Below are positions 929 through 44,320 of a stretch of 55,653 nt of DNA, in pieces. A model generated the notes under the pieces. The model ran no database searches. It saw only the letters and a list, made by a program, of their open reading frames with translations, and had not been told where the DNA came from. Source of the stretch: Anaerolineales bacterium. GTDB lineage: Bacteria > Chloroflexota > Anaerolineae > Anaerolineales > Villigracilaceae. The stretch covers positions 1 through 55,653 of the forward strand of contig DAOTZM010000088.1 of NCBI GenBank assembly GCA_034434035.1, given 5' to 3'. Both the position numbers and the translations under genes were made by a program. Every line of letters begins with the position of its first letter. Position 1 is the stretch's first letter.

Positions 929-2347
929 ATGGCTATCAAACAATTCTCGCAGACCGACCCGCAGTGGAAAAGCAAATTGCTCGGATTCGATAAAACATCG
1001 ACCATCGGCAATTTTGGCTGCCTGCTGACCAGTTTTACGATGTGCGCCACCCACTACGGAGCGACCGACCTGACGCCGGATACGCTGAACGACAAAATGA
1101 AAGCCGTCGCAGGCTTCCAGGCCGGTACGGCTTTTATCATCGGCGGCGCGCTGGGCAGCGTGGTGTCGGGCATGAGCGTGGATTACCGCAAGGGCGCGCC
1201 GCTGGCCGAAATCGACGCTTCATTGGCCCAGGGACGCCCGGTCATCATCGAGGCCGACTGGTCGCCATCTGCCGGGCTGCAAACCCACTACATGGTGGTC
1301 TACTCCAAAGAAGGGGATGACTACCTGGTGTATGACCCGTATCCCTTTCCTGTGGACAAAGGCGTTATCAAACTCTCTGCATCGAAATACGCCCAACTGG
1401 CCGGGTCGAAAGAAGCGAATCGCATCATCACCGGCTGTTTCTTCACGCGCGGCGCGATGAAAATCGACCCGCCAACCCCGCCCAAACTGGATAAGGGCGT
1501 GTATGCCTCCTTCCCGGTCTATGCGACGGCGGACGAACTGGCCGTGCGCTCCCAGCCGATGGTCTCCGATTTCACCCTGCTAAAACGCTACCCGGTCAAC
1601 ACCGAGTTCAAAGTGCTGGAGGCCGACGCCGCCGCCAACCCCAAAATCGGCCAGCAAAACCAATGGCTGGCGGTCAAAGCGCCCGACGGGACGGAAGGCT
1701 ACACCGCCGCCTGGCTGGTCTCGAAGGCAAAAAACGCCGCCGCGCCCGCGCCCGGCACGCCGCCCGCGCCGGTTCCCGTTCCCAAGGATGCACCGGTCGT
1801 CAAAACCAATGTGGATGCGCTCAAACTGCGCTCCAAGCCCGATAACACCGAGGCCACCATCCTGAAAATGTACCCGATTGGCGCCGAGTTGAAGGTGCTG
1901 GAGCCAGGTTCCGAAGTCAAGCGCAAAGTGGGCGTGAATTTCGAGTGGCTCAAAGTGGCCGATGTGGAAGGCAAACAGGGCGTGGTTGCCGCCTGGTACG
2001 TCTCCATCGTCAGCCTGGGCGCCTTCGGCCCCGAAGCCCAGCGGCAGACAGCCGGACCGAACTTTAGCATCGAGGAAGTTCCCCCGCTGGTTCTGCGCAC
2101 CACCGAAGACGGCGTGGCGATGCGCGCCAAGCCGTATATATCCCAAGATACCCTCATCCTGCGCATGCCCAAAGGCGCGGAATTGATTGCAATGGGCCGC
2201 CAGGATACTGCCGCCAGGAAGGTTGGCAAAGCCGGGGACTGGATTCGCGTAAAAGATGTCAAAGGCAACAAGGGCTATGTAGCCGCCTGGCTGCTGGAAG
2301 AACGCCCCGAAGACCCAATTCCACAGGTCAGCCCGGCAGACTGCTAA
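929..2347 (+). CDS. papain-like (Peptidase_C39_2-like) cysteine peptidase domain followed by three bacterial SH3 (SH3b) repeats
   Basis: N-terminal Q/C/H/D pattern (FSQTDPQW, GNFGCLLTS, THYMVVY, YDPY). Three about 65-aa repeats end in (G)YxAAW(L/Y)(V/L). I prefer the ATG at 929, preceded by GGAGAAGG, over the TTG at 896. Confidence 0.65.
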   Translation: MAIKQFSQTDPQWKSKLLGFDKTSTIGNFGCLLTSFTMCATHYGATDLTPDTLNDKMKAVAGFQAGTAFIIGGALGSVVSGMSVDYRKGAPLAEIDASLAQGRPVIIEADWSPSAGLQTHYMVVYSKEGDDYLVYDPYPFPVDKGVIKLSASKYAQLAGSKEANRIITGCFFTRGAMKIDPPTPPKLDKGVYASFPVYATADELAVRSQPMVSDFTLLKRYPVNTEFKVLEADAAANPKIGQQNQWLAVKAPDGTEGYTAAWLVSKAKNAAAPAPGTPPAPVPVPKDAPVVKTNVDALKLRSKPDNTEATILKMYPIGAELKVLEPGSEVKRKVGVNFEWLKVADVEGKQGVVAAWYVSIVSLGAFGPEAQRQTAGPNFSIEEVPPLVLRTTEDGVAMRAKPYISQDTLILRMPKGAELIAMGRQDTAARKVGKAGDWIRVKDVKGNKGYVAAWLLEERPEDPIPQVSPADC

Positions 2348-2349
2348 AC

Positions 2350-2369
2350 ATCCCATGTTTTTATGGGAT
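2350..2369 (+). terminator. weak hairpin directly after the stop codon (ATCCCAT-GTTTTT-ATGGGAT)
   Basis: 7-bp stem seen in sequence. No T-run after the stem, so terminator function is uncertain. Confidence 0.3.
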
Positions 2370-2805
2370 TGAGAGAAATCAGGCCTTACTGCGAAGTACA
2401 CAGAGTTCTATTGCGCATCACCCGCACGACCTTTGTGTACTTCGCGCCCATTAAATAACGTGAATTCGAGATAGAGATTTAGCGCTTGATTGCGTGAAAA
2501 TGTTGCGCGCAAAGCCGCCAAGGCCGCCAAGTTTTTAAGTTTTCTTTTCTGTGCCGTACAAATTTAAAAAATTGAACCGCGAAGCCCGCAAAGATAGCAA
2601 AGAAATCCTGAAATCTGTGCGTTCTTGGCATTCTTCGCGGTAAAAAATCCGAGGATATACGGTAGAGAAGTTTTCTTTGCGAACTTTGCGCCTTTGCGTG
2701 AGAAAAAGCATAAAACTTAACCAGGAAATTTTATCCCGAACTGACGTTAAGTAAGGCCCGCGTCTTTTAAGAGATGGGAAGTTAGAGCAACCCAGGAAGT
2801 GCATC

Positions 2806-4905
2806 TTGACGAAATTTGCCGACCTAGAAATCAGTTTTCACAAACACGAACAGGGACAATACAGCGTGGAATTGCGTCTTTCGCTGCCCGATTCCGAAGC
2901 CGATATTCGTCCGGGCAGCGGCGCGCCGATTGTGGTGGAGTTCGATTTCTCGACCATTCAGTTGATGATTTCTGACCCCAAAGAATACGGCCTGATGCTC
3001 GCAGAAAGTTTCTTCGTGGCCGAAATGGACAAGGCCTTTGCCGAGGCGCGCGCCAGCGCCGCTGCGGCGGGTGCGCCTTTGCGGGTGCGCCTGCTGGCCG
3101 ATTCGAGCGCGCCCGAAATCAACACCCTGTACTGGGAAGCCCTGCGCAACCCCAAAGACAAGTCAGCGCTGTTTACGGGAGAAAACATCCTGCTCTCGCG
3201 TTACCTTGCGAGCGGCGACCTGCGCCCCGTCAAATTGCGCCCGCAGGGCGCGTTGAAGGCCCTGGCAGCAGCGTCCAATCCTTCCGACTTAACAGGATAC
3301 AAACTGGCGCCGGTTGATGTGGCCGGTGAACTGGGGCGGGCAAAAGATGCCCTCGGCGCGATTCCTGTCACCGAACTGGGCCGCGCTGAACCCTGTACGC
3401 TCAACGCATTGGCGGAAAAATTACGCGCTGGCTGCGACATCCTGTACCTGGCAGCGCATGGCACGGTTGCCGAGGGTGGCCCGCGCGTCTGGCTGCAAAA
3501 CGAAGACGGCAGCGCGGCCATCACCTCGGCGGAAGAAATCGTCACCCGCATCCGAGAATTGCAGAACCCCCCGCGCCTGGTGATGCTGGCCTCCTGCCAG
3601 AGCGCCGGGGACGGTAAACCGAACAAGGATACGGGACGGGTGTTGCAAGCCTTTGGCCCCGGCCTGGCGCAAGCCGGCATCCCGGCGGTGGTTGCCATGC
3701 AGGGCAATATCAGCATGGATAGCGTCAAGAAATTTCTGCCGGTCTTTTTCAGCGAGTTGCAAAAAGACGGCCAGATAGACCGCGCCCTGGCCGTGGCGCG
3801 CGGCACCATCCGCGATGCGCACGACTTCTGGATGCCGGTCTTATTCATGCGCCTGCGCAGCGGCAAAATATGGTACGTGCCAGGGGTAGGTGAAGAAGGC
3901 GATGAATTCGACAAATGGCCCGGCCTGGTCACCGCCATCCAAAACAACGCCGCCTGCACGCCCATCCTGGGGCCGGGATTGTACGAGCCGTTAATGGGTT
4001 CATGGCAGGATATCGCCGAGGGGCTGGCAAAGAAATTCGACTTCCCGCTTTCTGATGCGATGCGCCAATCTATCCCCCAGGTTGCGCAATATATTGCCAC
4101 CCATTACGACCCGGGCAGTCTGTTCGACAGCCTGGACGCCATGACTCGCAAGGCAGTGCAGGAGCGGTTTGCCAGCCAATTGCCAGACCCGCTCAAGAAA
4201 CCCGGCGCCAGCATCGAAGAACTCTTCCGCGCTGCCGGCCGCAAAGCGCGCGAGCAGGATAAAATCGAGGCTTATTGCGTGCTGGCGAATTTACCGCTGC
4301 GCATCTACATCACAACCGGCTACGACGACATGCTGGCCGACGCGCTGCGCGAAGTCGAAATCGAGGCCGAGAGCGGGGAAAAGGAGAAAAAGAAGCCCGA
4401 AGTCGTCATCTGCCCCTGGAGCGAACGCTTTTACGCGCCGTCAATCTACGATGATGAACCGGGCTATGCGCCGAGCGTCGAACGCCCGCTGGTCTATCAC
4501 CTGTTCGGGCATCGCAGCGTCCCCGATTCGATGGTGCTGACCGAAGACGATTATTTCGAGTTCCTGATGGGATTCACCGCCAACAAGAAGCGCACCCCGC
4601 CGGTCATCCCGCCGGCAGTCTTGCGCGCCCTGACCGATACCGCCCTGCTCATCCTGGGCTTCTCGCTGGATGACTGGGCCTTCCGCGCCCTGTTCCGCAC
4701 GGTGATGATTCAGCCAGGCGGCGCGCGGCGCGGACGTTACTCGCATGTTGGCATCCAACTGGAACACGACGACGCGCGCAATATGAACCCAAAGCGCGCC
4801 CGCGCCTACCTGCAAAAATACTTTGAGCAGGCGCAAATCAACCTGTATTGGGGCAAATCTGAAGATTTCCTGCGAGAACTGGCCCAACGCTGGAAGGCAG
4901 CATAA
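2806..4905 (+). CDS. CHAT (caspase-fold, clan CD) protease fused to a SIR2-like (SIR2_2 type) domain
   Basis: 699 aa. CHAT His/Cys dyad in ILYLAAHG and, 49 aa later, LVMLASCQSAG. C-terminal half has SIR2_2 landmarks: TPILGPGL, IYITTGYDDML, VYHLFGH...MVLTEDDYFEF, LILGFSLDDWAF. TTG start with AGGAAG 8 nt upstream. Confidence 0.8.
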   Translation: MTKFADLEISFHKHEQGQYSVELRLSLPDSEADIRPGSGAPIVVEFDFSTIQLMISDPKEYGLMLAESFFVAEMDKAFAEARASAAAAGAPLRVRLLADSSAPEINTLYWEALRNPKDKSALFTGENILLSRYLASGDLRPVKLRPQGALKALAAASNPSDLTGYKLAPVDVAGELGRAKDALGAIPVTELGRAEPCTLNALAEKLRAGCDILYLAAHGTVAEGGPRVWLQNEDGSAAITSAEEIVTRIRELQNPPRLVMLASCQSAGDGKPNKDTGRVLQAFGPGLAQAGIPAVVAMQGNISMDSVKKFLPVFFSELQKDGQIDRALAVARGTIRDAHDFWMPVLFMRLRSGKIWYVPGVGEEGDEFDKWPGLVTAIQNNAACTPILGPGLYEPLMGSWQDIAEGLAKKFDFPLSDAMRQSIPQVAQYIATHYDPGSLFDSLDAMTRKAVQERFASQLPDPLKKPGASIEELFRAAGRKAREQDKIEAYCVLANLPLRIYITTGYDDMLADALREVEIEAESGEKEKKKPEVVICPWSERFYAPSIYDDEPGYAPSVERPLVYHLFGHRSVPDSMVLTEDDYFEFLMGFTANKKRTPPVIPPAVLRALTDTALLILGFSLDDWAFRALFRTVMIQPGGARRGRYSHVGIQLEHDDARNMNPKRARAYLQKYFEQAQINLYWGKSEDFLRELAQRWKAA

Positions 4906-4926
4906 GGGAAGAGGAGTATTACAGGT

Positions 4927-7900
4927 ATGCCTGAAAACGCCATGAACACCACCATCGCTTCGCGCCCAAACCCGTATGTCGGCACGCGCCCCTTCAAACG
5001 AGGCGAAACCCTCTACGGGCGCGAGCAGGAAACATCCGAGCTGCTGGATTTGCTGATTGCCGAACGCATCGTCATGCTGTATTCGCCCTCCGGCGCGGGA
5101 AAGAGTTCCCTGTTGAATGCTTCCATCCTGCCCAAGATGGAAGAAAGCGGATTCGAGATATTGCCTGCGGCGCGCGTCAACCACGAACCGTCCCCCGAGG
5201 CCCAAGCAATTTCAGGCTTCAATCGCTATATTTACAGCCTGATAGTTTGCATCGAGGAGGGAGTTCCTGCCGAACACCGCTTCCCACCCGAAGAAATCGC
5301 CGCGCTGCGGCTCAAGCAATACCTGACCCGCCATCGTGAACGCGCCATCGCGTTGGACCCCGCTTACGACGATTCGCGCGCCCGGCTGCTGGTCATCGAC
5401 CAGGGTGAAGAAGTTATCACCATCGACCCGGCAGCCCGCGAGCAAAAACAGGATTTCTTCAACCAACTGGGCGAAGTCTTGCGCGACCGCAGCATTTGGA
5501 TGCTGTTCTCCCTGCGCGAGGACTATGTCGCCCGCTTCGATTCGTATATCAAACCCATCCCCACCGGCTTCGCCACCCGCTACCGACTGCGCCTGCTGCA
5601 ATCCGAGGCAGCCCTGCCCGCGATTCAAAAACCCCCGTTGCAGCACAATGTCGTCTTTACCGAGGAGGCCGCCCGCAAACTGGCCGATGACCTGCGCAAA
5701 ATGCAGGTACAGCAAGCCGACGGCACAGCCGAGGAACAACTCGGATTGTACGTCGAGCCGGTCCAGTTGCAGGTCGTCTGCCGCCGCCTGTGGAGTTCGC
5801 TCGAACGCAGCGACAATGAAATCGGCCTCGATGACCTCGAACGGGTAGGCGATGTCGATACCGCCCTGGCCGACTATTACAGTTTGCAAGCCGCCACCGT
5901 CGCCGCCAAAACCGGCGTGCGCGAACGCGCCATCCGCGAATGGTTCGACCGCAAACTCATCACCAAGCAAAATGTCCGCAGCCAGGTGCTGTTGGCGCCC
6001 GGTAAAAGCGACGGCCTGGAAAACCACGCCATTCACGAGATGGAACGCACCTACCTGGTGCGCTCCGAAAAGCGCGGCGGCTCCACCTGGTTCGAACTGG
6101 CCCACGACCGACTGATTATCCCAGTCCGTGAAAACAACCAGGCCTGGTTCGACAAACACCTGAGCGTATTACAGCGCGCCGCCGATGTCTGGAACGAACA
6201 GGGGCGCAGCGATGGCTTGCTGCTCTTTGGAAAAGATTACCTGGAGGCCGAAGAATGGGCGCGTAAGAACGCAGACTTTCTCCTGCCCCATGAATCAGAC
6301 TTTATCAATGCCTGCCACAAATACTTTGAACAGCAGAGACGCGAGCGGCAAACCAACTTCATCGTCCGCGTTCTGTTGGGCGTGAGCCTGGTGGCGCTGG
6401 CTGCCGCCATTGTCCTGTTCATCCAAGCCAGGCAGGCCGAAAACCGCGCTGAAACGGAACAATTGGCGGCGAGTTCGCTCAGGGACTTGAAGGTTGACCC
6501 AATTAACAGTCTTTTGTTGGCCGTGGAAGCCGTGCAAAACACCCAGCCGCCCCTGCCCAACGCCATTGACGCCCTGCATCGCTCCCTGCCCTCCATGCGC
6601 CTGGCGCGCACCTATTACGGACATACCGACCGGGTTTATGGCATTTCTTACAGCCCGGATGGCCGCTTGCTGGCATCCTCCAGCCGCGACGGCTCGATAA
6701 AAATTTGGGATGCCAGCGGCGCGACCCGCGACGCCCTCTACACCTTCAACATCGATACAGTCCCCAACTCGTATGGCGCAAGCAACGTCGCCTTTAGCCC
6801 GGATGGCCGCCTGCTGGCAGGGGTCAACGGGCAGGGAGAAATCGTCCTGTGGGACACTGCCACCTGGCAGGAAATCCGCCGCAAAAACAACGCCCACGCT
6901 GGGGTCATCTGGGGGCTGGCCTTCAGCCCGGATAGCCGTCTCCTGCTCACCGGCGGAGGCGACTCGCTCGTCAAACTGTGGAACGCCTCCGATTTGGGCG
7001 AAATCCACACATTTAGCGAACACCAGGATGTGGTCAACGCCGTAGCCTTCAGCCCCGATGGAACGATGATTGCCAGCGCGTCCGACGACCGCACAGCAAA
7101 AGCCTGGCGCGTTTCCGACTACAGCCGCGCTGCCTCCTACAGCCTCCCGCCGCGCATCCTCTCCAACCCGCCGCGCGTGAATAGCGTGACCTTCAGCCTC
7201 GATAACACCCGCCTGATTTCCACCTCGACCGATGGCAATGTTTATGTTTGGGACATCGCTTCTGGCGCGCAAATCATGAAAATCGGCGGGCACGACGACT
7301 GGGTCTACGGCGTTCTGGCGCGCCCCGGCTCCGATGCCGATGCCACGCAGGGCGAAATTATCACCGCCGGGGCCGACCGCTCCATCCGCATCTGGGGCGG
7401 CCTGTATGGGCGTTCCAAACTCGAATTGCGCGGTCATACCGACCAGGTTTACAGCCTGGCGCTCCACCCCACCGATGACGGCCTGCTGGCCTCCGCCAGC
7501 GCCGACCAAACGGTGCGCATCTGGGATATTTCCTGGGCCGGGAACTATGAGAGATTCACCAAGGACCTCGAAACCGAACAGGGAATTCCCGGCTATGCCG
7601 AAGATGTGGATTACAACCCGCAAGGCACGCTGCTGGCTATTCCCATCTCCCTGGCAAGGAATCCCAACGACCCCTTCCCCAATTATGGGCTTCCGGGAGA
7701 AATCCTGCTCGTCGACCCGCGCACTGGCGAACGGGACGGGCCATCCCTGCGCGGCCATAGAGCCGGTGTCTTTGCCATTGATTTCGACAGCAGCGGCCGG
7801 CGCCTGGTTTCGGCCTCTCTCGACAAAACCGCCATTATCTGGGATGTCGAAGCCCGCAATCCGCTATTCACCCTGGAACATGACAACATCGTTTACTCGG

Positions 7901-8667
7901 CAGACTATAGCCCGAATGACTGGTGGATTGCCACCGGAACGCAGACAGGCGATATAGTGCTATGGGACGCGAAGACCGGCGCGCGAATCAAATCCTTCTC
8001 CTATCGGGATATCCTGGGAACAACCGTAGACAGGAAAATCGTAGCCCAGGTGCAATTCGACACCGACAGCACCTTAATCGCCATCCAGTACCGGGAAGAT
8101 AAAAACATCTACCTGATTGACGCCCAAACCGGCGCGCTGGAAATGACCTTGCGCGGCCATGAAGACATCGTCCGCGATATCGACTTCAGCCTGGATGACG
8201 CTACCCTGGTCTCCGTAGGCGACGACGCCCGGATGATTTTGTGGGACCTGACCCCCGGCATCCCCGATGACAAGCGTATCCTTAACGTGTACCAGGAGCA
8301 CCTGGCGACCATATTCAGCGTGACCTTTTCTACGCTAGAAAACAACGAATACATCCTCAGCGCCGGGGCCGATGGCGTGGTGAAAGTCTGGAGCCGGGTC
8401 GACCCCAACAAGGATGACTGGGAAGTCGCCTATACCCTGCGCGCCTACGCCTTCGCCAACGATGACACCATCCTGGATATCGAAATTTCTCCCACCAACG
8501 AAAACGAAGTCGTGGCGGTCGTCAATGATTGGACAGCGCGCGGTTTCACCCTCTCGAAAACGGAACTGCTCGAACTGGCCAAACAGCGTCTGCGCGTCAA
8601 CCTCGATTGCCGCCAGCCCGAAGAACTGGAACCGCTCGAACAGGAAATTTGCACGATGAATCCGTAA
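4927..8667 (+). CDS. STAND-type P-loop NTPase (nSTAND-like), single TM helix, long WD40 repeat array
   Basis: 1246 aa. N-terminus NPYVGTRPF...LYGRE, Walker A SPSGAGKSS, Walker B LLVIDQGEE. Hydrophobic helix FIVRVLLGVSLVALAAAIVLFIQ (about 6358-6426). At least 12 WD40-like units (GHTDRVYGISYSPDGRLLASSSRDGSIKIWD and similar). GAGGAG Shine-Dalgarno (SD) sequence upstream of the ATG. Confidence 0.85.
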   Translation: MPENAMNTTIASRPNPYVGTRPFKRGETLYGREQETSELLDLLIAERIVMLYSPSGAGKSSLLNASILPKMEESGFEILPAARVNHEPSPEAQAISGFNRYIYSLIVCIEEGVPAEHRFPPEEIAALRLKQYLTRHRERAIALDPAYDDSRARLLVIDQGEEVITIDPAAREQKQDFFNQLGEVLRDRSIWMLFSLREDYVARFDSYIKPIPTGFATRYRLRLLQSEAALPAIQKPPLQHNVVFTEEAARKLADDLRKMQVQQADGTAEEQLGLYVEPVQLQVVCRRLWSSLERSDNEIGLDDLERVGDVDTALADYYSLQAATVAAKTGVRERAIREWFDRKLITKQNVRSQVLLAPGKSDGLENHAIHEMERTYLVRSEKRGGSTWFELAHDRLIIPVRENNQAWFDKHLSVLQRAADVWNEQGRSDGLLLFGKDYLEAEEWARKNADFLLPHESDFINACHKYFEQQRRERQTNFIVRVLLGVSLVALAAAIVLFIQARQAENRAETEQLAASSLRDLKVDPINSLLLAVEAVQNTQPPLPNAIDALHRSLPSMRLARTYYGHTDRVYGISYSPDGRLLASSSRDGSIKIWDASGATRDALYTFNIDTVPNSYGASNVAFSPDGRLLAGVNGQGEIVLWDTATWQEIRRKNNAHAGVIWGLAFSPDSRLLLTGGGDSLVKLWNASDLGEIHTFSEHQDVVNAVAFSPDGTMIASASDDRTAKAWRVSDYSRAASYSLPPRILSNPPRVNSVTFSLDNTRLISTSTDGNVYVWDIASGAQIMKIGGHDDWVYGVLARPGSDADATQGEIITAGADRSIRIWGGLYGRSKLELRGHTDQVYSLALHPTDDGLLASASADQTVRIWDISWAGNYERFTKDLETEQGIPGYAEDVDYNPQGTLLAIPISLARNPNDPFPNYGLPGEILLVDPRTGERDGPSLRGHRAGVFAIDFDSSGRRLVSASLDKTAIIWDVEARNPLFTLEHDNIVYSADYSPNDWWIATGTQTGDIVLWDAKTGARIKSFSYRDILGTTVDRKIVAQVQFDTDSTLIAIQYREDKNIYLIDAQTGALEMTLRGHEDIVRDIDFSLDDATLVSVGDDARMILWDLTPGIPDDKRILNVYQEHLATIFSVTFSTLENNEYILSAGADGVVKVWSRVDPNKDDWEVAYTLRAYAFANDDTILDIEISPTNENEVVAVVNDWTARGFTLSKTELLELAKQRLRVNLDCRQPEELEPLEQEICTMNP

Positions 8668-8684
8668 CGCGGAATTCATTCCGC
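8663..8684 (+). repeat. palindromic 22-mer CGTAACGCGGAATTCATTCCGC (copy 1; contains the stop codon of the WD40 gene)
   Basis: Exact reverse-complement copy at 13817-13838 and a 21/22 copy at 54186-54207. Followed by a second palindrome GCGAAATAAATTTCGC (8693-8708). Confidence 0.9.
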
Positions 8685-8731
8685 GCCATAATGCGAAATA
8701 AATTTCGCGCTACATAGCCAAAGGAGCGAGA

Positions 8732-10741
8732 ATGTCACAGGAATTGTTTCTCAACGGAATCGACGCCGACACCGGCGGCCCCATCGACGGAGACGATGTT
8801 GTCATCACTACCGAGATGATTGCCAAAGTGGCGCGCGGGCAGAAACTCACGCCCGAAGACCTGCGCGATGCCAAGATGCGCAAAGCCCTCGATGACCAAA
8901 AACATGAGCATTTTGGCGTGGCCGAAGGAATCGACGATACCAACCTGGCTGAAACCGGCTGGTCGGTCATCTTCCCGGCGGCCCTGCCCAAAAAATCGGT
9001 CGATGCGCTCAAGGAAGCCCTCGAACCCCTGCTCGACCATCGCCGCGAACAGGCCTCGGCCAACGCCGAAACATTCTACAAGGAAGTCATCGGCCCGGAG
9101 TTGGGCATCAAAAACGGCGAGAGCAAGAACGAGTTCCTAAAACGCTTTGGGCGCGGCCCCGGCCCGGCGGACCCGGCCAAGTTCCCCTACTATGCCCTGA
9201 TTGTCGGCTCGCCGGAAACCATCCCCTACACCTTCCAATACCAGTTGGACGTGCAATACGCCGTGGGGCGCATTTACTTCGACAAACTCGAAGACTATTA
9301 CCAGTATGCCCAGAGCGTGGTTGCCGCCGAAACCAAGAAGCTGGCGCGCGCCAGGAAAGCCGCTTTCTTTGGCGTCGCCAACCCCGACGACCGCGCTACC
9401 CAGATGAGCGCCGAACATCTCATCCAGCCGCTGGCAAAGCAAATGAAAACCCGCAAAGACTGGAAAGTGGATGTCGTCGCCCCCGAAAAAGCCACCAAAG
9501 CCAACCTGGGCAATTACATGGGCGGCAAGGATACCCCCTCCCTGCTCTTTACTGCCTCGCACGGCATGAATTTCAAGATGGGCGATCCGCGCCTGCTGCG
9601 CCACACCGGCGCCATCCTGACCCAGGACTGGCCCGGCCCCAAAGCGCGCGTCCCCATCAAGGAAGACCTGTACTTCTCCGCCGACGACATCGCTTCGAAT
9701 GCCGATGTGTTCGGCATGATTGCCTTCGTCTTTGCCTGTTATGGCGGCGGTATTCCCAAGATGGATAACTTCTACCGGCAAGCCTTTGGCTCGCAAAAAG
9801 AGATTGCCCCGTATGCCTTCATCTCGCAGTTGCCGCTCAGGCTGCTCTCCCACCCCAAGGGCGGCGCGCTGGGCGTCTTTGCGCACGTCGAACGCGCCTG
9901 GGGACAATCGATTATCTGGGACCAATCGGCAGCCGATGTCGTCACCTTTACATCAATGATTGACGCCCTGCTGAATGGCAAACCCGCCGGAGCCGCCACC
10001 GAGTACTTCAACGAACGCTACGCCGAAATCTCCACCATGCTGACCGAGGAACTGGACAACACCACCCCAGACAATCAAGATGACGTTAAAATTGCCGGAT
10101 TGTGGACCTCGAACAACGATGCCCGCAACTATGCCTTCATCGGCGACCCGGCGGTGCGGCTGGCTATCGGCGCAGCGGAAACGCCCAAGCCCGAACGCGA
10201 GAAACTCGGCGCGATTGTCAGCCAGCCCCCGGCGGCAGTCGTCGGCGCGGCGGTCAGTTTCCAGCCGGATGTCGAAGACCGCGCCCCGGCAGCAAAGGCC
10301 GCCACTTCAGGCGGCGCAGCGGTGGATTACAGTGTCCGCGACCTCTTCAGTAAAAAACCAGAACCAGGGGATGGCGCAGCCCCCGCCCCCGCCAGCGGCG
10401 GACTGAACGAATCGCTTAAAAATTTCGTCGAAAAACTGGGCAATTACCTCAGCAAAGCCCTCGACGACGCCAGCAGCCTGGAAGTCAGCACCTACGTAGC
10501 CGATGACCTGGCCGATGTAAAATATGAAAGCGGCAAATACAGCGGCGCCCGCCTGCGCGCCATAACCCGCATCAACCTCGACGGCGACACCCTGGTCTGC
10601 ATCCCGGAAAAAGACGGCGAAGTCGATACTGCCATCTGGAACATTCACCTCGAGATGGTCAAATCGGCCCAGGAAAACCGCGCGGAATTAATGAAAACCA
10701 TCGTCGGCGCGGCGACGAGCATTGTCAACATCGTCAAGTAA
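8732..10741 (+). CDS. caspase-fold (clan CD, gingipain/C25-like) cysteine protease with a C-terminal domain shared with the downstream small protein
   Basis: 669 aa. His in LLFTASHGM and Cys in IAFVFACYGGG, each after a hydrophobic strand and about 50 aa apart. YALIVGSPETIPY resembles the C25 family. Ala/Pro/Gly-rich linker, then an about 110-aa C-terminal domain. AAAGGAG SD 6 nt upstream. Confidence 0.6.
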   Translation: MSQELFLNGIDADTGGPIDGDDVVITTEMIAKVARGQKLTPEDLRDAKMRKALDDQKHEHFGVAEGIDDTNLAETGWSVIFPAALPKKSVDALKEALEPLLDHRREQASANAETFYKEVIGPELGIKNGESKNEFLKRFGRGPGPADPAKFPYYALIVGSPETIPYTFQYQLDVQYAVGRIYFDKLEDYYQYAQSVVAAETKKLARARKAAFFGVANPDDRATQMSAEHLIQPLAKQMKTRKDWKVDVVAPEKATKANLGNYMGGKDTPSLLFTASHGMNFKMGDPRLLRHTGAILTQDWPGPKARVPIKEDLYFSADDIASNADVFGMIAFVFACYGGGIPKMDNFYRQAFGSQKEIAPYAFISQLPLRLLSHPKGGALGVFAHVERAWGQSIIWDQSAADVVTFTSMIDALLNGKPAGAATEYFNERYAEISTMLTEELDNTTPDNQDDVKIAGLWTSNNDARNYAFIGDPAVRLAIGAAETPKPEREKLGAIVSQPPAAVVGAAVSFQPDVEDRAPAAKAATSGGAAVDYSVRDLFSKKPEPGDGAAPAPASGGLNESLKNFVEKLGNYLSKALDDASSLEVSTYVADDLADVKYESGKYSGARLRAITRINLDGDTLVCIPEKDGEVDTAIWNIHLEMVKSAQENRAELMKTIVGAATSIVNIVK

Positions 10742-10817
10742 TACGAATACGTTCCGAAGGCTTGCTATGATGCGTTCAAAGCACCGATAAAAATCTTCGG
10801 AACGGTTTACGAAAATT

Positions 10818-11621
10818 ATGCCTGTCTTTGAATCCACCGGAACCAGCGACCCGCTCGGTTTGTGGACATCCGCTCCACAGTCGGGAATGGTGCATTTTGG
10901 CATCGGAGACGAAGCCCTCTCCCCGCCGCCAGATGCGCCGGTCTTCCGTGTCAACTTGCCGGGCAGCAGTGAAGCAGCCAGCGAGGTCTTTGAGACCAGC
11001 GAAGCCTGGTTCGAGCGGATGAATGCAGCGCTCGAGGCTGTTCCCGACCGGCTGGATACCCTGGTCAGCCAGATGCAGGCCCGCCAGGCGGCGGGAGACT
11101 CCATCAGTTTCGACGCTGCCAGCCTGGAGGGGGAACCCGGCCCGGAGAGCGACCTGCTCCACCTGCTGGAGGACGCCTCCCAGCCCGCAGCAGCGGAGGA
11201 TGAAGGGGGAATGGCGCATTTCGGCATCGAAGAACCTATCAGCCAGGCCTGGCAGGATGCCCGGGCGCGCTTCGATGCCTTGATGGAGCAAATCAACCGC
11301 GAGGTGCTGCACTTCGCCTGGGTCGAGACCAATATTGCCGGGCAACTCATCGCCCGCAGCGAAATCGATTGGAGCGGCGACGCCACCACCCTGTGGGTCG
11401 AAAACGTCTCCGAAGAACAAAAGTCGCTCCACCACCGCGCACTCAACGTGGCCGCCCGCAGCCGCAATATGAAACTGCGCCTGTTCGTAACGGTGGCGGG
11501 CGGCGCGGCCAAAGTGACAACCCTGATGGCCGCCGGGACGCCCGTGCTGGCCTTGCCGGCTGTTTACCAGTATGTCCTGTCGATTGTCAAGCAAGTCAGG
11601 CAGCTGCAAAGCGTATCGTGA
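10818..11621 (+). CDS. hypothetical acidic protein with an internal duplication (GM[VA]HFGI motif x2) and a hydrophobic C-terminus
   Basis: 267-aa ORF co-directional with the operon. I recognise no family. C-terminal LFVTVAGGAAKVTTLMAAGTPVLALPAVYQYVLSIV is hydrophobic. The start codon is uncertain (no clear SD). Confidence 0.5.
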   Translation: MPVFESTGTSDPLGLWTSAPQSGMVHFGIGDEALSPPPDAPVFRVNLPGSSEAASEVFETSEAWFERMNAALEAVPDRLDTLVSQMQARQAAGDSISFDAASLEGEPGPESDLLHLLEDASQPAAAEDEGGMAHFGIEEPISQAWQDARARFDALMEQINREVLHFAWVETNIAGQLIARSEIDWSGDATTLWVENVSEEQKSLHHRALNVAARSRNMKLRLFVTVAGGAAKVTTLMAAGTPVLALPAVYQYVLSIVKQVRQLQSVS

Positions 11622-11701
11622 ACATTGTCCCCGGCAAACCGGCGGACTTCAAAAGCAAACAGTCCATCGGCAAGCCGATGGACTCCAAAAAAGGAGAAAA
11701 A

Positions 11702-12025
11702 ATGGCAACCAGCCCCGAACTGAAACAAGCCCTGAAAGACGCCGCCGATGCCATCGCCAAGTATGTGCAGGATGCCGCGACCATGACCGTCGAGACCCGC
11801 TACGTCGAAATGGGCGGCGAGGTCGAAAAGGCCAAACTGGCCGCCCGCACCACCGTCAAACTGGACGGCGACAGCGAATCCATCCTGCCGATGAAACAGT
11901 CCGCCGAGGGCGAACTGGTGGTCGATACGGTCGTCTATGAGATGCACCAGGAGAATGTACAGGCCGCCATCGACTACCGGGCCGAGATGCTCGACCGCCT
12001 GCTGACCGTGCTGCGCAGGGAGTAA
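11702..12025 (+). CDS. small (107 aa) protein homologous to the C-terminal domain of the 8732-10741 protease
   Basis: AAGGAG SD 6-7 nt upstream of the ATG at 11702. Aligns with protease residues about 560-669 (shared LK..L, DA, V.T, L.A.T...LDGD, VDT, H.E.V..A...RAE). Confidence 0.65.
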   Translation: MATSPELKQALKDAADAIAKYVQDAATMTVETRYVEMGGEVEKAKLAARTTVKLDGDSESILPMKQSAEGELVVDTVVYEMHQENVQAAIDYRAEMLDRLLTVLRRE

Positions 12026-12035
12026 ATTCTCGATA

Positions 12036-12070
12036 AAAACGTCCCGAAGGCTGACTGCCTTCGGGACGTT
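12036..12070. terminator. bidirectional intrinsic terminator-like hairpin (15-bp perfect stem, 5-nt loop)
   Basis: AAACGTCCCGAAGGC-TGACT-GCCTTCGGGACGTTT lies between the convergent genes ending at 12025 (+) and 12076 (-). Confidence 0.75.
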
Positions 12071-12075
12071 TGCAT

Positions 12076-13596
12076 TTAACGCCGCCTTTGCCACACCTGG
12101 TAGCGTTCGTTCTCGTAAATCACCTCCCAGGCGCGGGTGTCTTTGATTTGCTGGAAGAGCCAGCGCTGGTTGGGGGCCACCAGCAGGCCGGGATGGGCGT
12201 TTTTGGCTGCGAGCAGGGATCCAATACAGGGCCAGTCTTTCTCATTCTGGCAGGCGCGCAGGTCAATCAGGGTTTGCAGCTGCTCGGCGTAGTTCCCTTT
12301 CCACTCGCTGCCCCACAATGCGAAAACAGGAGTCCGCTCCAGCAGGTAAGGGAACCACTCGGCTTCGTTAATCTTGCCAATATAGAGATACGTCTGTGAA
12401 GGGTCGGTTTCGCCCCGCACGAACTTCGCCATCTGGAGGGAATAGACATCGATTTCCGGCTCGTAGCGGATGATTTCCGACAGGTTTCTCCCCAACCCAA
12501 GCAGGACGAGCGCGGCTGTGAGCATGGTCAACGCCCGGCGAAGGGCAGGCCGCTGGCGAAAGCGTTCGACCATCCACTCGGCAAGACCACCCGCCATCAT
12601 CGCCGCCAGGATGACCGGAAAGAACGAGGCTTCGCCCATCGCCAGGGTGAGCAGGAAGGCCAGGGGCAGGTGAAATTGTCGTCGAAACAGGAGCAGGATA
12701 AAGCCGGGTAAAGACAAAACAGCCAGGAATCCGTTGCGGGTAACGTGGGCAAGATTCTCCCAGAGATAATTCAGCGCTCCGCCGAAATCCTGAAAAAGCA
12801 AGGAAAGAAAATCGGCGTTGCGATGCGAGGAAGCGGCCATCCACAAGCTCTCGAAACCATGCCGGGCAATGACCGTCCCCAGCCAGGGGGAGGCGACGAG
12901 CAGGGCCAGCCCCAGGATTCCGAGCGCGGTCAGGGCGCGGCGCGGCTGGCCTTCGGCAACAAGAAAGGCAAATCCAACCAGCGCGGCGAACAATGTGTAA
13001 AGCAGGTGCGTGGTCAACAGCAGGCCGAGGCAGATTCCTGCCAAAACGATGAGACGCCAGGAGGGCTGCCGCAGGGCGCGCAGGTAAAACAGGAGACCGG
13101 TCAGGCACAGGGCCAGCGCCAACCCGCGCACCACCCCCGCCGACCAGACGTGGATGCTGAAGACGGATGGGGCAGTGAAAGCCAGCAGGAGCGCGGCCAA
13201 CCCGCCCCAGCGGGCGCCGGTCAGTTCACGCGCCAGGAAGTAGAAGGGGATGAGGGCCAGCAGGCCAAAAACCGGCGGAATCAGCCGCAGGTAGGCCCAG
13301 GTCGAGAGTCCCAGTTTGATGGCAACCGCAAAAATATAATGCCCGAGCGGCGGATAGACAAATGGAATGCCGCCCGGCCCATAGCGCGGAATCTCCAGCG
13401 GCAGAGCAAAATTCGCATTCGCTATTTGCTCAGCCATCTGAGCGAACATCCCGGCATAGCCAAGCGGGAGGGAGTGGCGAAAGGCGTGGAAAAAGAAAAC
13501 CGGGGCGAGGAGCAAAAGTCCTGCCATGAGCGGCAGGTGAGGTTTGAGACGAAAAGAGAAGAAAGTGAATGTAAACATGATCATTGGGAATATCAT
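12076..13596 (-). CDS. polytopic membrane protein, GT-C / ArnT-PMT-like glycosyltransferase family
   Basis: 506 aa with about 12 hydrophobic segments. N-terminal region resembles the dolichyl-phosphate-mannose/ArnT family. The assignment is by general resemblance only. Confidence 0.55.
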   Translation of the reverse strand: MIFPMIMFTFTFFSFRLKPHLPLMAGLLLLAPVFFFHAFRHSLPLGYAGMFAQMAEQIANANFALPLEIPRYGPGGIPFVYPPLGHYIFAVAIKLGLSTWAYLRLIPPVFGLLALIPFYFLARELTGARWGGLAALLLAFTAPSVFSIHVWSAGVVRGLALALCLTGLLFYLRALRQPSWRLIVLAGICLGLLLTTHLLYTLFAALVGFAFLVAEGQPRRALTALGILGLALLVASPWLGTVIARHGFESLWMAASSHRNADFLSLLFQDFGGALNYLWENLAHVTRNGFLAVLSLPGFILLLFRRQFHLPLAFLLTLAMGEASFFPVILAAMMAGGLAEWMVERFRQRPALRRALTMLTAALVLLGLGRNLSEIIRYEPEIDVYSLQMAKFVRGETDPSQTYLYIGKINEAEWFPYLLERTPVFALWGSEWKGNYAEQLQTLIDLRACQNEKDWPCIGSLLAAKNAHPGLLVAPNQRWLFQQIKDTRAWEVIYENERYQVWQRRR

Positions 13597-13816
13597 GGGC
13601 AGCAGCCAAATTCTGCGCCTTCATACTATAACCGATGGCATGAAAATTCACAACAAAATACATTTCGATTCCGGAGTCCAAAATCTCCCGATTTTGGCCG
13701 AAGTCGGGAGATTTCGGACTCTGCCTTTGACAACCAACCATCCCGAAGGTTTCTTAAGATCTTCGGGATGGTTTTCTGAAACATTACTGCCAAAATTGGG
13801 ATGGCGTGGTCCGGCA

Positions 13817-13838
13817 GCGGAATGAATTCCGCGTTACG
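13817..13838 (-). repeat. palindromic 22-mer, copy 2 (exact)
   Basis: Reverse complement is CGTAACGCGGAATTCATTCCGC, 12 nt downstream of the yeeE-rhodanese stop. Confidence 0.9.
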
Positions 13839-13849
13839 AAGTCAAATGG

Positions 13850-15151
13850 CTATCCGCAGCCACCGCCGGATTTGTCGCGTTTCATCTGTAACTGAATCTT
13901 GGGAGTAAATTCAATTTTTTCGTTCTCGATGGGGTCAGGGTCAGAACACTCGTAGCGGTCGCCCAGGGCAGCGGGGAATTTGAATCTCAGGGTTTCCTCC
14001 AGCGCGGTTGAGACGGGCTGAATTTCGGGGTCGGTATGACCGAAGACGGTAATCCAGTGGTTGATGCCGCCTTCGAGAATGTAGACATTCGGCACGCCCT
14101 CGGCGGTCAGCAGCCGCCAGGATTGGGTGGCGAGTCCCTCGTCGTTGCCCATCAGCACGTAAACGGCGTTCGGCGCGGAGGCGGCGAGCAGTTCCGGGAT
14201 GCGCGATTTCAATTGCTCGGCGGGAATATTCAGCGCGCCGCGCAGGTGGAACAGGTTGTAATCGGATTCGGAGCGCACATCCAACAGGGTCAGGATGAGT
14301 CCCTGGTCGTAACGCGCCTTGAACAGCTCCGCCGGGGTGATTTGAACCAGTCGCTGATTCAGGGCTTCCTCGGCGGAGTATTTGACCTGTGTCTCTGTCA
14401 CTTTTCCATCGGCCTGTAATTCGGGAACGGTGCGAAGGATGATGGCCTTTTCGTATTTCTGCTCGGTGGAGGGCATTCCGATAAAAACAACGGCCAGCGC
14501 CAGGACGATGATTGCGCCCGCGCCGTACAGGCGCAGCTTGGGTTCGCGGCTCATATCTTTTTTACCGATAATACGCTCCAGTTGTTCAGAACCCCAGAAC
14601 ATGAACAGCGCCATCAGGACGACCATTAGAACGACGACGCCGGTCGGCAGGCCGAAGACATCCATCAACGTGACGCGGCCAAAATATCCGGCATTGTTGT
14701 ACCAGTCGGTGAAGAAACGTTCGGTTTCACCAAACAGGAACGCGCCCACGAATCCGCCCAGCATGAACATCATGCCGTCGATTTTGCCGGTCGAGGCCGA
14801 AGCCAGCGAGGTGGTGGGACAGAACCCGCCAACAATAAAGCCAACGCCCATAATCAGCCCGCCCAGGATGCCCGACCAGAGATAGGTCGGATTGACCCAG
14901 ACCTGGCTGTAATCGAGCAAACCGAGGCTGACTGCGCCGAAGGTCAGCACCATGGCAGTGATGACGGCGGTGAACATCACTTTCAGCACGGTCAGTTCGG
15001 TGAAATAGAACTGGGCGGCCAGTTTGCGGCTGTTGCCAAAGCCCGACATTTCGAGGGTGAAGCCAAAAGCGAAGCCAATCAGTCCAAAGACGAGATAGGT
15101 CCAGGGATTGGCGGCGCTGACGTTTTGGAAGGCAAGAAGAGGAAAGTTCAT
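13850..15151 (-). CDS. YeeE/YedE-family sulfur-compound transporter half fused to a C-terminal rhodanese domain
   Basis: I prefer the start MNFPLLAF at 15151 (GAGG SD). Membrane part has GGFCPT. C-terminal rhodanese-like LLDVRSESDYNLFHLRGALNIP...YILEGGINHW. The 516-aa ORF extension overlaps the upstream gene. Confidence 0.75.
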   Translation of the reverse strand: MNFPLLAFQNVSAANPWTYLVFGLIGFAFGFTLEMSGFGNSRKLAAQFYFTELTVLKVMFTAVITAMVLTFGAVSLGLLDYSQVWVNPTYLWSGILGGLIMGVGFIVGGFCPTTSLASASTGKIDGMMFMLGGFVGAFLFGETERFFTDWYNNAGYFGRVTLMDVFGLPTGVVVLMVVLMALFMFWGSEQLERIIGKKDMSREPKLRLYGAGAIIVLALAVVFIGMPSTEQKYEKAIILRTVPELQADGKVTETQVKYSAEEALNQRLVQITPAELFKARYDQGLILTLLDVRSESDYNLFHLRGALNIPAEQLKSRIPELLAASAPNAVYVLMGNDEGLATQSWRLLTAEGVPNVYILEGGINHWITVFGHTDPEIQPVSTALEETLRFKFPAALGDRYECSDPDPIENEKIEFTPKIQLQMKRDKSGGGCG

Positions 15152-15161
15152 AGGAGCCTCG

Positions 15162-15731
15162 CTAATTCCACAATTTCCGCACGAAATAGGCCAGGCCATA
15201 GGCGCCCGCAAAGATGCAGAGCATGACCACCCATGAGCCAGCCGAAAGCACCGCTCCGCCGGTGAGGGCCTGGCCGCTGGTGCAGCCGCGCGCCATGCGC
15301 GCCCCATAGAGGAACAACATGCCGCCCACAAAGGCCAGCAGCCAGCGGGCGCGGTCAGAGATATGCGGGCCTTTGGTGGTTTCGAGTTTGACGCGGCCAA
15401 AAATCATGCCCGAGGCAAAGCCACCCAGCAGCGCGCCGAAAAAGACCGGAACCAGCCAATCATCGAGCGGGTTTTTGTCGCCGCCGGCCATGCGCAACAG
15501 GTAAGGGGTGCGGTCCACATGGTCGGGGACGAACTGGTCTTGCACGAAAACGACCAGGCGCGAGGTAGCCCCCGAGGAGCCAAGTCCGTTACCAGTCAGA
15601 AACAAGGCCAGGAACAGGACCACGCCCAGGATGACCCCGCCCAGATACGGATGCACATAGGGTTGGGCCGGGCGGTTGAAGAGGGCTTTCAGGTCAAAAG
15701 TTTTTTTGGTTGGTTTTGCTGCGAGTGCCAT
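15162..15731 (-). CDS. YeeE/YedE-family sulfur-compound transporter half
   Basis: Start MALAAKPTKK at 15731. ARGCTSGQALTGG motif is typical of YeeE/YedE. The ORF extension upstream only translates heptamer repeats. Confidence 0.75.
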   Translation of the reverse strand: MALAAKPTKKTFDLKALFNRPAQPYVHPYLGGVILGVVLFLALFLTGNGLGSSGATSRLVVFVQDQFVPDHVDRTPYLLRMAGGDKNPLDDWLVPVFFGALLGGFASGMIFGRVKLETTKGPHISDRARWLLAFVGGMLFLYGARMARGCTSGQALTGGAVLSAGSWVVMLCIFAGAYGLAYFVRKLWN

Positions 15732-15805
15732 AAGTTTCTCTCTTTCCGGGTTCGTTATTCCGGGTTCGTTATTCGGGGTTCGATATTCGTTATTCGACCA
15801 ATTTT

Positions 15806-15875
15806 CGAGTATCGAGTATCGAGTATCGAGTATCGAGTATCGAGTATCGAGTATCGAGTATCGAGTATCGAGTTT
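15806..15875. repeat. tandem heptanucleotide array (CGAGTAT x9 plus 1 variant), flanked by 14/7-mer repeats (15745-15796) and GAATTACC-type repeats (15881-15908)
   Basis: Counted directly. Lies between the cytochrome-b fusion gene (stop at 15894) and the yeeE-like start (15731). Confidence 0.95.
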
Positions 15876-15893
15876 CGCGCCACGAATTACCAA

Positions 15894-18620: not shown

Positions 18621-18667
18621 GGGTTCATCCGTTGCTTTATCTGGCATTGGACAGGATAAATCCTGTC

Positions 18668-20143: not shown

Positions 20144-20213
20144 TGCATTCTCCTTTGCCCTTCACCCCGGCCCTCTCCCGATGAGAGAGGGAGCAGAGGT
20201 AAAGATGCGTACA

Positions 20214-20552: not shown

Positions 20553-20676
20553 GGTAAAGCCTGCCTTGTATGCAAATAAGCGAATATATACATATCAACT
20601 ATATCACCGCCGGGCAAACATGACATAGCGATAGTTGTCACAAAAATCGCGGAGCATTGTCATAGAAGGTGGAATC

Positions 20677-20706
20677 AAAAAGGCTGCCCTTTCGGGCAGC
20701 CTTTTT
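20677..20706. terminator. intrinsic terminator (AAAAAGGCTGCCC-TTTC-GGGCAGCCTTTTT)
   Basis: 13-bp stem flanked by A- and T-runs, 17 nt downstream of the rhodanese gene stop on the minus strand. Confidence 0.8.
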
Positions 20707-20722
20707 GATTCTTGAAAATCGT

Positions 20723-22462: not shown

Positions 22463-22510
22463 TTTCTTCTCCTTGAAAAAGGCGCGCATACCCTTGCGGG
22501 CACACGACGA

Positions 22511-32026: not shown

Positions 32027-32062
32027 ACCTGGCAATCTCCATGTGTACCGCAGGGATACATG

Positions 32063-44318: not shown

Positions 44319-44320
44319 GC

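Follow-up and report, generated by a model that had tools for sequence, protein, structure and literature searches.

The window analysed here is a stretch of 55,653 nucleotides (nt), positions 1 to 55,653 of the forward strand of contig DAOTZM010000088.1 (assembly GCA_034434035.1), from an Anaerolineales bacterium (Chloroflexota; Villigracilaceae). It contains five co-directional open reading frames (ORFs) on the plus strand, g1 to g5. The constant part of this operon is g3-g4-g5, and, judging from profile comparisons, the products of these three genes all carry one homologous domain of about 100 amino acids (aa), here called the D domain. CHAT proteases and STAND NTPases of the kind encoded by g1 and g2 recur beside this core in changing arrangements. 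The operon is conserved in filamentous Chloroflexi and cyanobacteria and looks like a device for suicide or lysis that is set off by proteolysis. We tentatively read it as a receptor-gated cascade from CHAT to the C25-like protease, which would release an effector directed at the membrane or the cell wall and would have g3-g4-g5 as its constant output module; the dynamic steps are our inference. The logic is a known one with three new parts: an output module of a C25-like protease and D-domain proteins, a membrane-spanning receptor, and an apparently non-catalytic SIR2 domain. The genes, together with the adjoining upstream gene U483, are the following.

929-2347, plus: U483, Peptidase_C39_2-like cysteine peptidase with bacterial SH3 (SH3_3) repeats (Pfam)
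2806-4905, plus: g1, 699 aa, CHAT protease fused to a SIR2_2-like domain (Pfam, alignments)
4927-8667, plus: g2, 1246 aa, nSTAND1 NTPase, transmembrane (TM) helix and WD40 array (Pfam, hydropathy)
8732-10741, plus: g3, 669 aa, N-terminal segment, C25-like protease, linker and D domain (Pfam, alignments)
10818-11621, plus: g4, 267 aa, acidic N-terminal half, D domain and hydrophobic helical hairpin
11702-12025, plus: g5, 107 aa, stand-alone D domain

This layout, with intergenic gaps of 21, 64, 76 and 80 nt, is the one described in a sequence-only reading of the same DNA, and the public gene calls on the contig give identical products of 699, 1246, 669 and 267 aa. All domains named in that reading (CHAT, SIR2_2, nSTAND1, WD40, Peptidase_C25) were recovered with Pfam, and g4 and g5 remained without a family. 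Purine-rich runs resembling Shine-Dalgarno sequences, which had been reported for most of the genes, precede g1, g2, g3 and g5; there is none before g4. The statement that no characterised system has this composition is borne out by the models of PADLOC-DB 2.0, none of which matched as a system: g1 gave weak domain-level matches only (ThsA, SAVED_CHAT), g2 a repeat match, and g3, g4 and g5 no match.

The g3-g4-g5 core

The domains and motif sites of the two larger core proteins, all on the plus strand, are placed as follows.

8909-8935, plus: g3 residues 60-68, motif site 1 (HFGVAEGID), at the end of an N-terminal segment of about 60 aa
9188-10162, plus: g3 residues 153-477, C25-like protease, H277/C336
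10325-10348, plus: g3 residues 532-539, linker with motif site 2
10397-10714, plus: g3 residues ~556-661, D domain
10890-10910, 11103-11117 and 11214-11234, plus: g4 residues 25-31, 96-100 and 133-139, loop motifs V-S/H-F(-G)
11259-11501, plus: g4 residues 148-228, D domain (hhalign)
11469-11591, plus: g4 residues ~218-258, hydrophobic helical hairpin rich in small residues

That g5 is a paralogue of the C-terminal domain of g3, as had been proposed, is confirmed by BLASTP (E 4e-10) and by hhalign (96% probability, E 1.4e-9). In the same proposal g4 was a protein of unknown kind; it, too, proves to carry the D domain. With shallow profiles, g5 and g4 were aligned at 22% probability and g4 and g3 not at all. 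Deeper profiles, built from g5 and the g3 C-termini for the D domain and from 312 sequences for the C-terminal half of g4, were then aligned by hhalign at 94.5% probability (E 7.5e-8), over 81 columns that span the whole domain and correspond to g4 residues 148-228; it is on this deeper comparison that the homology is claimed. The D domain lies behind the protease in g3, between the acidic half and the hairpin in g4, and alone in g5. In models made with AlphaFold2 (AF2) for g4 and g5 singly, g5 (pLDDT 69) consists of a helix, three to four strands and a helix, and g4 residues 143-234 have the same topology within a model of higher confidence (pLDDT 83, pTM 0.80).

The D domain has no match in Pfam, PADLOC, PHROG, NCBIfam or the PDB, and g3, g4 and g5 have none in PADLOC, NCBIfam and PHROGs. 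When 45 homologues of g5 and 44 of g4 were compared with Pfam at E-values up to 5, the result was no more than scattered chance matches. Gasdermin was matched neither in Pfam nor in PADLOC, and is not among the Foldseek matches in the PDB (best E 0.19, TM-score below 0.2). Among the non-significant Foldseek and Pfam matches of the D domain, proteins of alpha-beta-beta-beta-alpha fold come up repeatedly, namely dsRBD and ribosome hibernation factor (HPF)/S30AE, with TM-scores of 0.2-0.3 and E-values of at least 0.02; the topology is alike, which is not taken as evidence of homology. This output module of C25-like protease, g4 and g5 is in no queried domain or defence database, yet it is widespread. 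The g3 family comprises at least 5,886 proteins in a collection clustered at 90% and 547 matching stretches in a collection with one genome per species, and a full profile search with g4 gave 883 clusters at 50% identity. The best 150 of these 883 are mostly proteins of 250-300 aa with a single-domain architecture, some being shorter.

Loci were analysed for the best 80 of the 547 g3 stretches by tblastn, six-frame ORF clustering and custom hidden Markov models. Those that have 7 kb or more of sequence on each side, 44 in number, were considered fully flanked. In nearly all of the 80 loci g3 is accompanied by g4, with g5 usually next, and this extends over three phyla. The notion of the five genes as a unit is therefore partly upheld: they are conserved and syntenic in Chloroflexota, Cyanobacteria and Acidobacteria, but their composition is not fixed, since g1-g2 behaves as a cassette present or absent between U483 and g3, and CHAT and STAND are both missing from the neighbourhood of the core in 10 of the 44 fully flanked loci. 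Across the order, g3 is 50-95% identical. When 24 complete loci are compared with the window, the C25 domain diverges slowest, with a median identity of 77%; the medians are 64% for the STAND module, 58% for CHAT, 41% for g4 and 34% for the WD40 sensor, which diverges fastest.

The description of g3 as a second clan-CD cysteine protease with an extra C-terminal domain proved correct. Peptidase_C25 is matched at 30.6 bits against a cut-off of 23 (E 2.7e-7), and the dyad H277 (in SHG) and C336 (in FACYGGG) is invariant in an alignment of 12 sequences. The Caspase/C14 profile (PF00656) does not match g3, a PDB search with the g3 profile returned nothing relevant, and the relationship to C25 is distant. 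Gingipains and PorU are secreted proteins with a signal peptide or a type IX secretion system C-terminal domain. In g3 no hydrophobic N-terminal segment was found, and the C-terminus is occupied by the D domain. Two diverged genomes (L045, L047) have an in-frame split of g3 between the protease domain and motif site 2, so that linker and D domain form a gene of their own; a covalent linkage between protease and D domain is thus not required.

A recurrent motif, [S/H]-[F/Y]-G-φ-x-[D/E], which the sequence-only reading did not notice, occupies five fixed sites in g3 and g4. Counted with the pattern [FYW]G[ILVM]x[DE] against shuffled sequences, it occurs 1.07 times per g3 (0.13 when shuffled) and 1.02 times per g4 (0.03), an 8- to 30-fold enrichment; in g1, g2 and g5 it is essentially absent, at or below the shuffled expectation. 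It is anchored at positions 61 and 533 of g3 and 27, 98 and 135 of g4. Column profiles, from 186 g3 and 312 g4 sequences, are given below, with conservation in per cent; at every site 84-99% of the sequences retain phenylalanine (or phenylalanine/tyrosine).

g3 60-68: H78 F74 G87 V79 x E89 G92 x D95
g3 532-539: N/D, Y/F 94, G74, φ, x, D72
g4 25-29: V-S-F96-G
g4 96-100: V-S-F95
g4 133-139: V-S-F/Y99-G79-φ-x-E/D82

The three g4 sites are the sole low-confidence loops of its AF2 model, and the second g3 site is part of the linker between the domains, on the C-terminal side of the natural split point. These features suggest that the motif loops may be processing sites, and together with the natural split of g3 they define five precise candidates for cleavage. 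There are bacterial proteases of CHAT or caspase-like type that accept large hydrophobic residues at P1, which provides a lead rather than a test.

The acidic half of g4 (26 aspartate or glutamate against 4 lysine or arginine residues) is as first described, but the supposedly hydrophobic tail is just moderately so, below 1.6 on the Kyte-Doolittle scale.

Upstream of the five genes, U483, whose linkage the sequence-only reading had missed, probably represents a sixth operon member and, from its domains, looks like an endolysin or autolysin. No signal peptide, TM helix or hydrophobic segment was found in it, and a PDB sequence search with its peptidase domain gave nothing relevant. In 21 loci it is the adjoining gene and runs in the same direction; the spacers, as measured in 20 related loci, are 0-177 nt long. 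It directly abuts g3 in L007, L012, L015 and L016, in which g1-g2 is absent. In four other Chloroflexota loci an endolysin-like gene with M23 and four SH3_3 domains follows g5. Such linked wall hydrolases suggest a lytic endpoint.

Several loci depart from the usual arrangement. In five cyanobacterial loci (L050, L058, L060, L061, L067; about 2000-17600) g3-g4 lies inside a conserved cluster with an FhaC-type two-partner-secretion transporter, a giant filamentous-haemagglutinin-like protein, a secreted TPR-CHAT protein, CHAT-nSTAND1-CHASE2 and DUF928. Three tandem g3 paralogues precede a single g4 in L078 (7782-14107), L077 (7727-11983) has a g3 fusion whose N-terminal extension of about 900 aa is unannotated, and in L044 (9977-14833) g3 is followed by an alpha/beta-hydrolase-like gene and then by a second g3 that has no D domain.

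The STAND receptor and the CHAT-SIR2 protein

Among the 44 fully flanked loci, a CHAT protease is found in 34, CHAT together with an nSTAND1-like NTPase in 32, a SIR2-like domain in 27, and not one of the three in 10. These partners come in at least five architectures, in varying gene order and on either side of the core (domains by Pfam).

CHAT-SIR2 with nSTAND1-TM-WD40, upstream of g3: the window and many Anaerolineales
CHAT-SIR2 and nSTAND1-TM-WD40 as a pair downstream of g5: L021, L072
CHAT-nSTAND1-CHASE2, downstream of g4: Nostoc, Leptolyngbya, Pantanalinema
CHAT-nSTAND1: L049
CHAT-x-HEAT: L039, L043, L073
nSTAND1-TPR: L043

That the association recurs in rearranged forms in three phyla is an argument that CHAT/nSTAND1 and the g3-g4-g5 core are functionally linked. 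SIR2 and WD40, on the other hand, are optional and interchangeable accessories. Neither SIR2 nor g5 was detected in the cyanobacterial loci, though g3 and g4 persist there.

The features of the two variable proteins of the window are these.

3067-3822, plus: g1 residues 88-339, CHAT domain, His218/Cys263
4303-4818, plus: g1 residues 500-671, SIR2_2-like domain, G505 and F567
4972-6210, plus: g2 residues 16-428, nSTAND1, Walker A GAGKSS, Walker B VIDQGEE
6361-6417, plus: g2 residues 479-497, TM helix (Kyte-Doolittle 2.66)
6601-8406, plus: g2 residues ~559-1160, WD40 array of about two propellers

The assignment of g2 to a STAND NTPase with a TM helix and WD40 repeats stands. The nSTAND1 family (PF20703) is matched at 105.9 bits against a cut-off of 27.1 (E 5e-30), and Walker A (GAGK[ST]S) and Walker B (hhhhDQ[FG]EE) are conserved across homologues. 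A single TM helix separates NTPase and sensor in 34 of 35 homologues, regardless of the type of repeat, and in the cyanobacterial receptor the sensor role is taken by CHASE2, an extracytoplasmic sensor domain. As the NTPase must be cytoplasmic and a single TM helix intervenes, the sensor is most likely located outside the cell, a topology deduced from the predicted helix. The apoptosome-like sensing that was first envisaged, if taken as sensing by a soluble receptor, is thus not supported. A membrane-spanning receptor suggests that the cue is perceived outside the cell, an unusual trait in STAND immunity.

In g1, CHAT (PF12770) is matched at 90.5 bits against a cut-off of 24 (E 1.6e-25), and its clan-CD dyad, H218 (AAHG) and C263 (ASCQS), is kept in all 33 aligned homologues, in agreement with the expectation of conserved catalytic residues. 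The SIR2_2 domain is matched as well, at 65.1 bits against a cut-off of 24.5 (E 9e-18), and had been expected to carry a conserved active site and to deplete NAD+. Here the outcome is different. In ThsA we take N112 and H152 to be the catalytic pair. Two independent alignments to ThsA structures in the PDB (6lhx, 8wc0), in one register, place ITTGYD of g1 on WTTNYD and YHLFGH on YKMHGD or YKLHGD, so that g1 has glycine (G505) at the position of N112 and phenylalanine (F567) at that of H152. The glycine is restricted to the clade of the window (5 sequences), most of the other homologues having asparagine (n = 33); the phenylalanine is found in nearly all 33, together with a conserved histidine two residues upstream of the canonical position. 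Since the SIR2-like domain of the window is devoid of both canonical catalytic residues, NAD+ depletion is not safe to infer from it; it is poorly supported by these alignments, though the domain may work by an altered mechanism, and SIR2 is missing from the cyanobacterial versions. The domain is probably a non-catalytic adaptor or ligand-binding module and not an NADase. In looking like a pseudo-enzyme, it calls for caution in deriving NADase activity from a Pfam match.

Proposed cascade, rival explanations and related systems

In the cascade that we tentatively favour, an extracytoplasmic cue would lead to NTP-dependent oligomerisation of g2, and the oligomers would activate the CHAT protease of g1 by induced proximity; other lineages have direct fusions of CHAT to nSTAND1. 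The motif loops of g3 and g4 would be cut first by CHAT and next by the C25-like protease once it is active. By these cuts the N-terminal peptide of g3 would be removed, its D domain detached and the acidic half of g4 stripped off. The freed D-domain proteins might then co-assemble, and the hydrophobic hairpin of g4 might attack the membrane; through the damaged membrane the signal-less C39/SH3b hydrolase U483 would reach the peptidoglycan and lyse the cell. Thus, of the original idea that sensor-triggered oligomerisation starts a proteolytic cascade and NAD+ depletion, a STAND-controlled cascade remains the natural reading, and NAD+ depletion is poorly supported. The fuller proposal, of a widespread and undescribed programmed-lysis pathway of filamentous bacteria with an outward sensor (propeller, TPR or CHASE2), a CHAT to C25-like cascade that acts on a dedicated [S/H]-[F/Y]-G motif, a breach by D-domain hetero-oligomers and a holin-independent wall hydrolase, analogous to a death receptor and not to the cytosolic apoptosome, is conceivable but on balance rather doubtful. 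Should the system described here be confirmed, bacterial programmed cell death would gain another effector family and a layout like that of a death receptor, with a bearing on cell sacrifice in multicellular bacteria.

A number of observations weigh against the cascade. The g4 hairpin is of borderline hydrophobicity, with a family median Kyte-Doolittle value of 1.58, and in the g4 of the window no stretch of 19 residues reaches 1.6; the AF2 model of g4 is a compact soluble fold. Foldseek searches of the g5 and g4 models against the PDB, and of the g4 model against BFVD, gave nothing below E 0.1. A search of 2.9 million viral contigs gave no phage-borne relatives of g3 from which one could argue. 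The locus is not in a defence island but is flanked by housekeeping genes (nadD, a PMT_2 glycosyltransferase, rhodanese and sulfur transport, multihaem cytochromes). The 10 loci without CHAT and STAND within 10 kb retain the loop motifs, so the g3-g4-g5 core may function independently of these partners. The motif may serve for docking and not for cleavage, and it is adjacency that suggests the link between a wall hydrolase and the core.

In another explanation, two unrelated units lie side by side: U483-g3-g4-g5 would be autonomous and vertically inherited, serving, for instance, developmental autolysis or remodelling of wall or filament, and g1-g2 would be an inserted conflict cassette. The four loci in which U483 abuts g3, several of them sharing the nadD-adjacent chromosomal context, would fit this view, as would the loci devoid of CHAT and STAND, the strong conservation of g3 and the housekeeping surroundings. 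However, CHAT and nSTAND1 recur beside the core in three phyla, with varied fusions, sides and orders (L021, L072, the cyanobacteria, L049, L043), which is hard to square with one chance insertion. Furthermore, L037, a complete Anaerolineales chromosome that has no g1 and g2, contains a WD40-only ORF of 301 aa directly upstream of g3 (9036-9941), and this remnant suggests that g1-g2 was lost secondarily. We consider two independent units unlikely.

To about the same degree improbable, in our opinion, is that the C25-like g3 acts as a broad executioner in the manner of PCaspase, with g4 and g5 as D-domain inhibitors, decoy substrates or chaperones resembling PCi, which would hold g3 in check until their own cleavage. 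The C25 domain is the most conserved part, g5 as a bare copy of the g3 C-terminal domain would suit a competitor or cap, the several motif copies in the acidic half of g4 would suit a decoy or bait, and PCi/PCaspase offers a precedent (10.1101/2023.06.23.546230). But g4 is well folded, forms 883 clusters and has a conserved C-terminal hairpin, which exceeds the needs of an inhibitor, and g5 was not detected in cyanobacterial loci despite the presence of g3 and g4. Still less probable, and in fact quite unlikely, is a cytosolic apoptosome-like STAND oligomer with parallel outputs, proteolysis and depletion of NAD+ by SIR2 as in Thoeris, DSR and Avs5. In its favour are the SIR2_2 match (E 9e-18), the weak ThsA matches in PADLOC, the asparagine of TTN[YF]D kept by most g1 homologues, the conserved histidine two residues before the canonical position and the SIR2 domains in 27 of 44 loci. 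Against it count glycine and phenylalanine at the N112 and H152 positions in the window, phenylalanine at the histidine position in nearly all 33 homologues, the dispensability of SIR2 in cyanobacterial and other variants, and the TM helix of g2, which puts the sensor outside the cytosol.

Conflict systems that pair STAND with proteases, and effectors unleashed by proteolysis, are under active study, and several known systems share parts of the receptor-gated cascade. In the SAVED-CHAT and PCaspase system of type III-B CRISPR, a sensor activates CHAT and CHAT activates a second protease (Steens et al., 10.1101/2023.06.23.546230). Likewise, CHAT is encoded in the present locus next to another cysteine protease of clan CD and to small accessories. 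It differs in the sensor, which is a membrane nSTAND1 NTPase here and a cA3-binding SAVED domain there, in the second protease (C25-like here, C14 (PF00656) there), and in the accessories (D-domain proteins here; a sigma factor, an inhibitor and a kinase there); furthermore, cleavage is only inferred here. The protease-effector modules built on Pepco, EACC1, MBL, alpha/beta-hydrolase or bacterial gasdermin place a protease beside a small latent effector; they have swappable sensors, including transmembrane STANDs, offer precedents for pore formers unleashed by a protease and for double-site cleavage, and are enriched in cyanobacteria and multicellular bacteria (PMC12642450). A protease adjoining a small putative effector, exchanged sensors and a bias to multicellular bacteria are found here as well. 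By contrast, g4 and g5 belong to no Pfam family, g4 has no neighbour in the PDB or BFVD, the shared domain occurs in three genes and is also fused to the protease, and there are two proteases instead of one.

Pepco, of about 117 aa and encoded next to a protease, has an N-terminal amphipathic helix, strands from which an oligomeric barrel is built, and at the C-terminus a disordered tail, charged or rich in proline, that undergoes cleavage (PMC12642450). Compared by description only, g5 is similar in its length of 107 aa, its place in a protease operon and its N-terminal helix followed by strands; it differs in that its C-terminus is predicted as a long helix and not a disordered tail, and in that none of its 45 members has a Pfam match. 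As to EACC1, g4 does have a patch of small residues (VAGGAAK), but its 44 members have no Pfam match, it contains no segment of Kyte-Doolittle 1.6, and it lies 3' of the protease. The conflict systems of nSTAND1/EACC1 type (Kaur et al., PMC7159879, PMC8195603) resemble the locus in the nSTAND1 clade, a caspase-superfamily effector, repeat sensors and a bias to filamentous bacteria, and adjacent genes with one small shared domain recall the principle of EAD coupling. However, no EAD, Death-like or EACC1 domain was detected here, and the shared domain is of alpha/beta type and undescribed. A text search of PMC7159879 and PMC8195603 gave no mention of a C25-like protease, and in the open-access literature searched general frameworks were found but no C25-like protease with these partners.

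ThsA, DSR and SIR2-STAND Avs systems have a SIR2_2 fold adjacent to a STAND NTPase, as here; the differences are the glycine and phenylalanine mentioned above and the optional nature of SIR2 in the family. In the Apaf-1 apoptosome, too, a STAND NTPase with WD40 propellers controls a cascade of caspase-fold initiator and executioner. The receptor described here is, however, membrane-anchored with its propellers beyond the TM helix, is of the nSTAND1 clade and not an AP-ATPase, and has no CARD or Death-fold adaptor; its predicted membrane topology sets g2 apart from Apaf-1, NLR and Avs, which are cytosolic. Finally, a signal-less SH3b hydrolase-like enzyme beside a small protein with a hydrophobic hairpin is reminiscent of phage holin-endolysin cassettes, but g4 is unlike any PHROG or BFVD entry and the proposed trigger is proteolysis, not holin timing.

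Flanking elements and the rest of the window

Three further elements were located around the operon.

826-855, plus: sigma-70-like promoter candidate, TTGAAA, 18 nt, TATAAT (11 of 12 consensus matches only)
2459-2747, no strand assigned: genome-specific insertion, about 290 nt long, within the spacer between U483 and g1, boundaries approximate (alignment to L002)
12037-12071, no strand assigned: hairpin with a perfect 15-bp stem and a 5-nt loop, likely a bidirectional terminator (folding)

The candidate at 826-855, which lies upstream of U483, is a possible promoter of the operon, judging by its consensus match. The U483-g1 spacer (2348-2805) is, as reported, a leader of 458 nt with low G+C content (44%) and repeats, in the form of eight heptamers of the types CGCAAAG, CTTTGCG and CGCGAAG. 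It is for the most part a genome-specific insertion. Both ends align to the 164-nt spacer of L002, the nearest relative that could be compared, where the middle of about 290 nt is absent, and a spacer of 458 nt is unique to the window among the loci measured. Therefore, a conserved regulatory leader or riboswitch was rejected. The insertion carries the heptamers in direct and inverted order and has no second copy in the window. It could be a mobile or repetitive element of small size, or else arrayed binding sites.

The 15-bp stem described downstream of g5 is indeed perfect (-29 kcal/mol, z -5.7). It is situated between g5 and a convergent glycosyltransferase gene on the minus strand, and a T-run is present on the minus strand only. 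No tRNA or Rfam family was found in the window.

Two other genes in the window are of STAND type, and this genome segment therefore contains several STAND NTPases. The second (29339-32170, minus; 942 aa) combines an AAA_16/AAA_35 ATPase with TPR and FGE-sulfatase domains, a layout that resembles the FGE-sulfatase-sensor conflict systems of multicellular bacteria, and lies beside a gene for a 658-aa protein that has no Pfam match (32330-34309, minus). The third (25167-26462, minus; 430 aa) has nSTAND2/AAA_35 matches. An island of low G+C content at 35000-38100 (40-45% against about 59%), with an N6/N4 DNA methylase carrying a Lar-like zinc ribbon (35266-36957) and an unannotated ORF of 385 aa (36914-38071), is probably a horizontally acquired cassette of restriction-modification type. 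The genes at 15894-23650 (minus), for multihaem c-type cytochromes (MtrC/MtrF-like, with a cytochrome b561 fusion), rhodanese and sulfur transport, probably encode machinery for respiratory or extracellular electron transfer. At 42072-52403 (plus), a PMT_2 glycosyltransferase precedes two DUF2298 membrane proteins of very large size (1705 and 838 aa).

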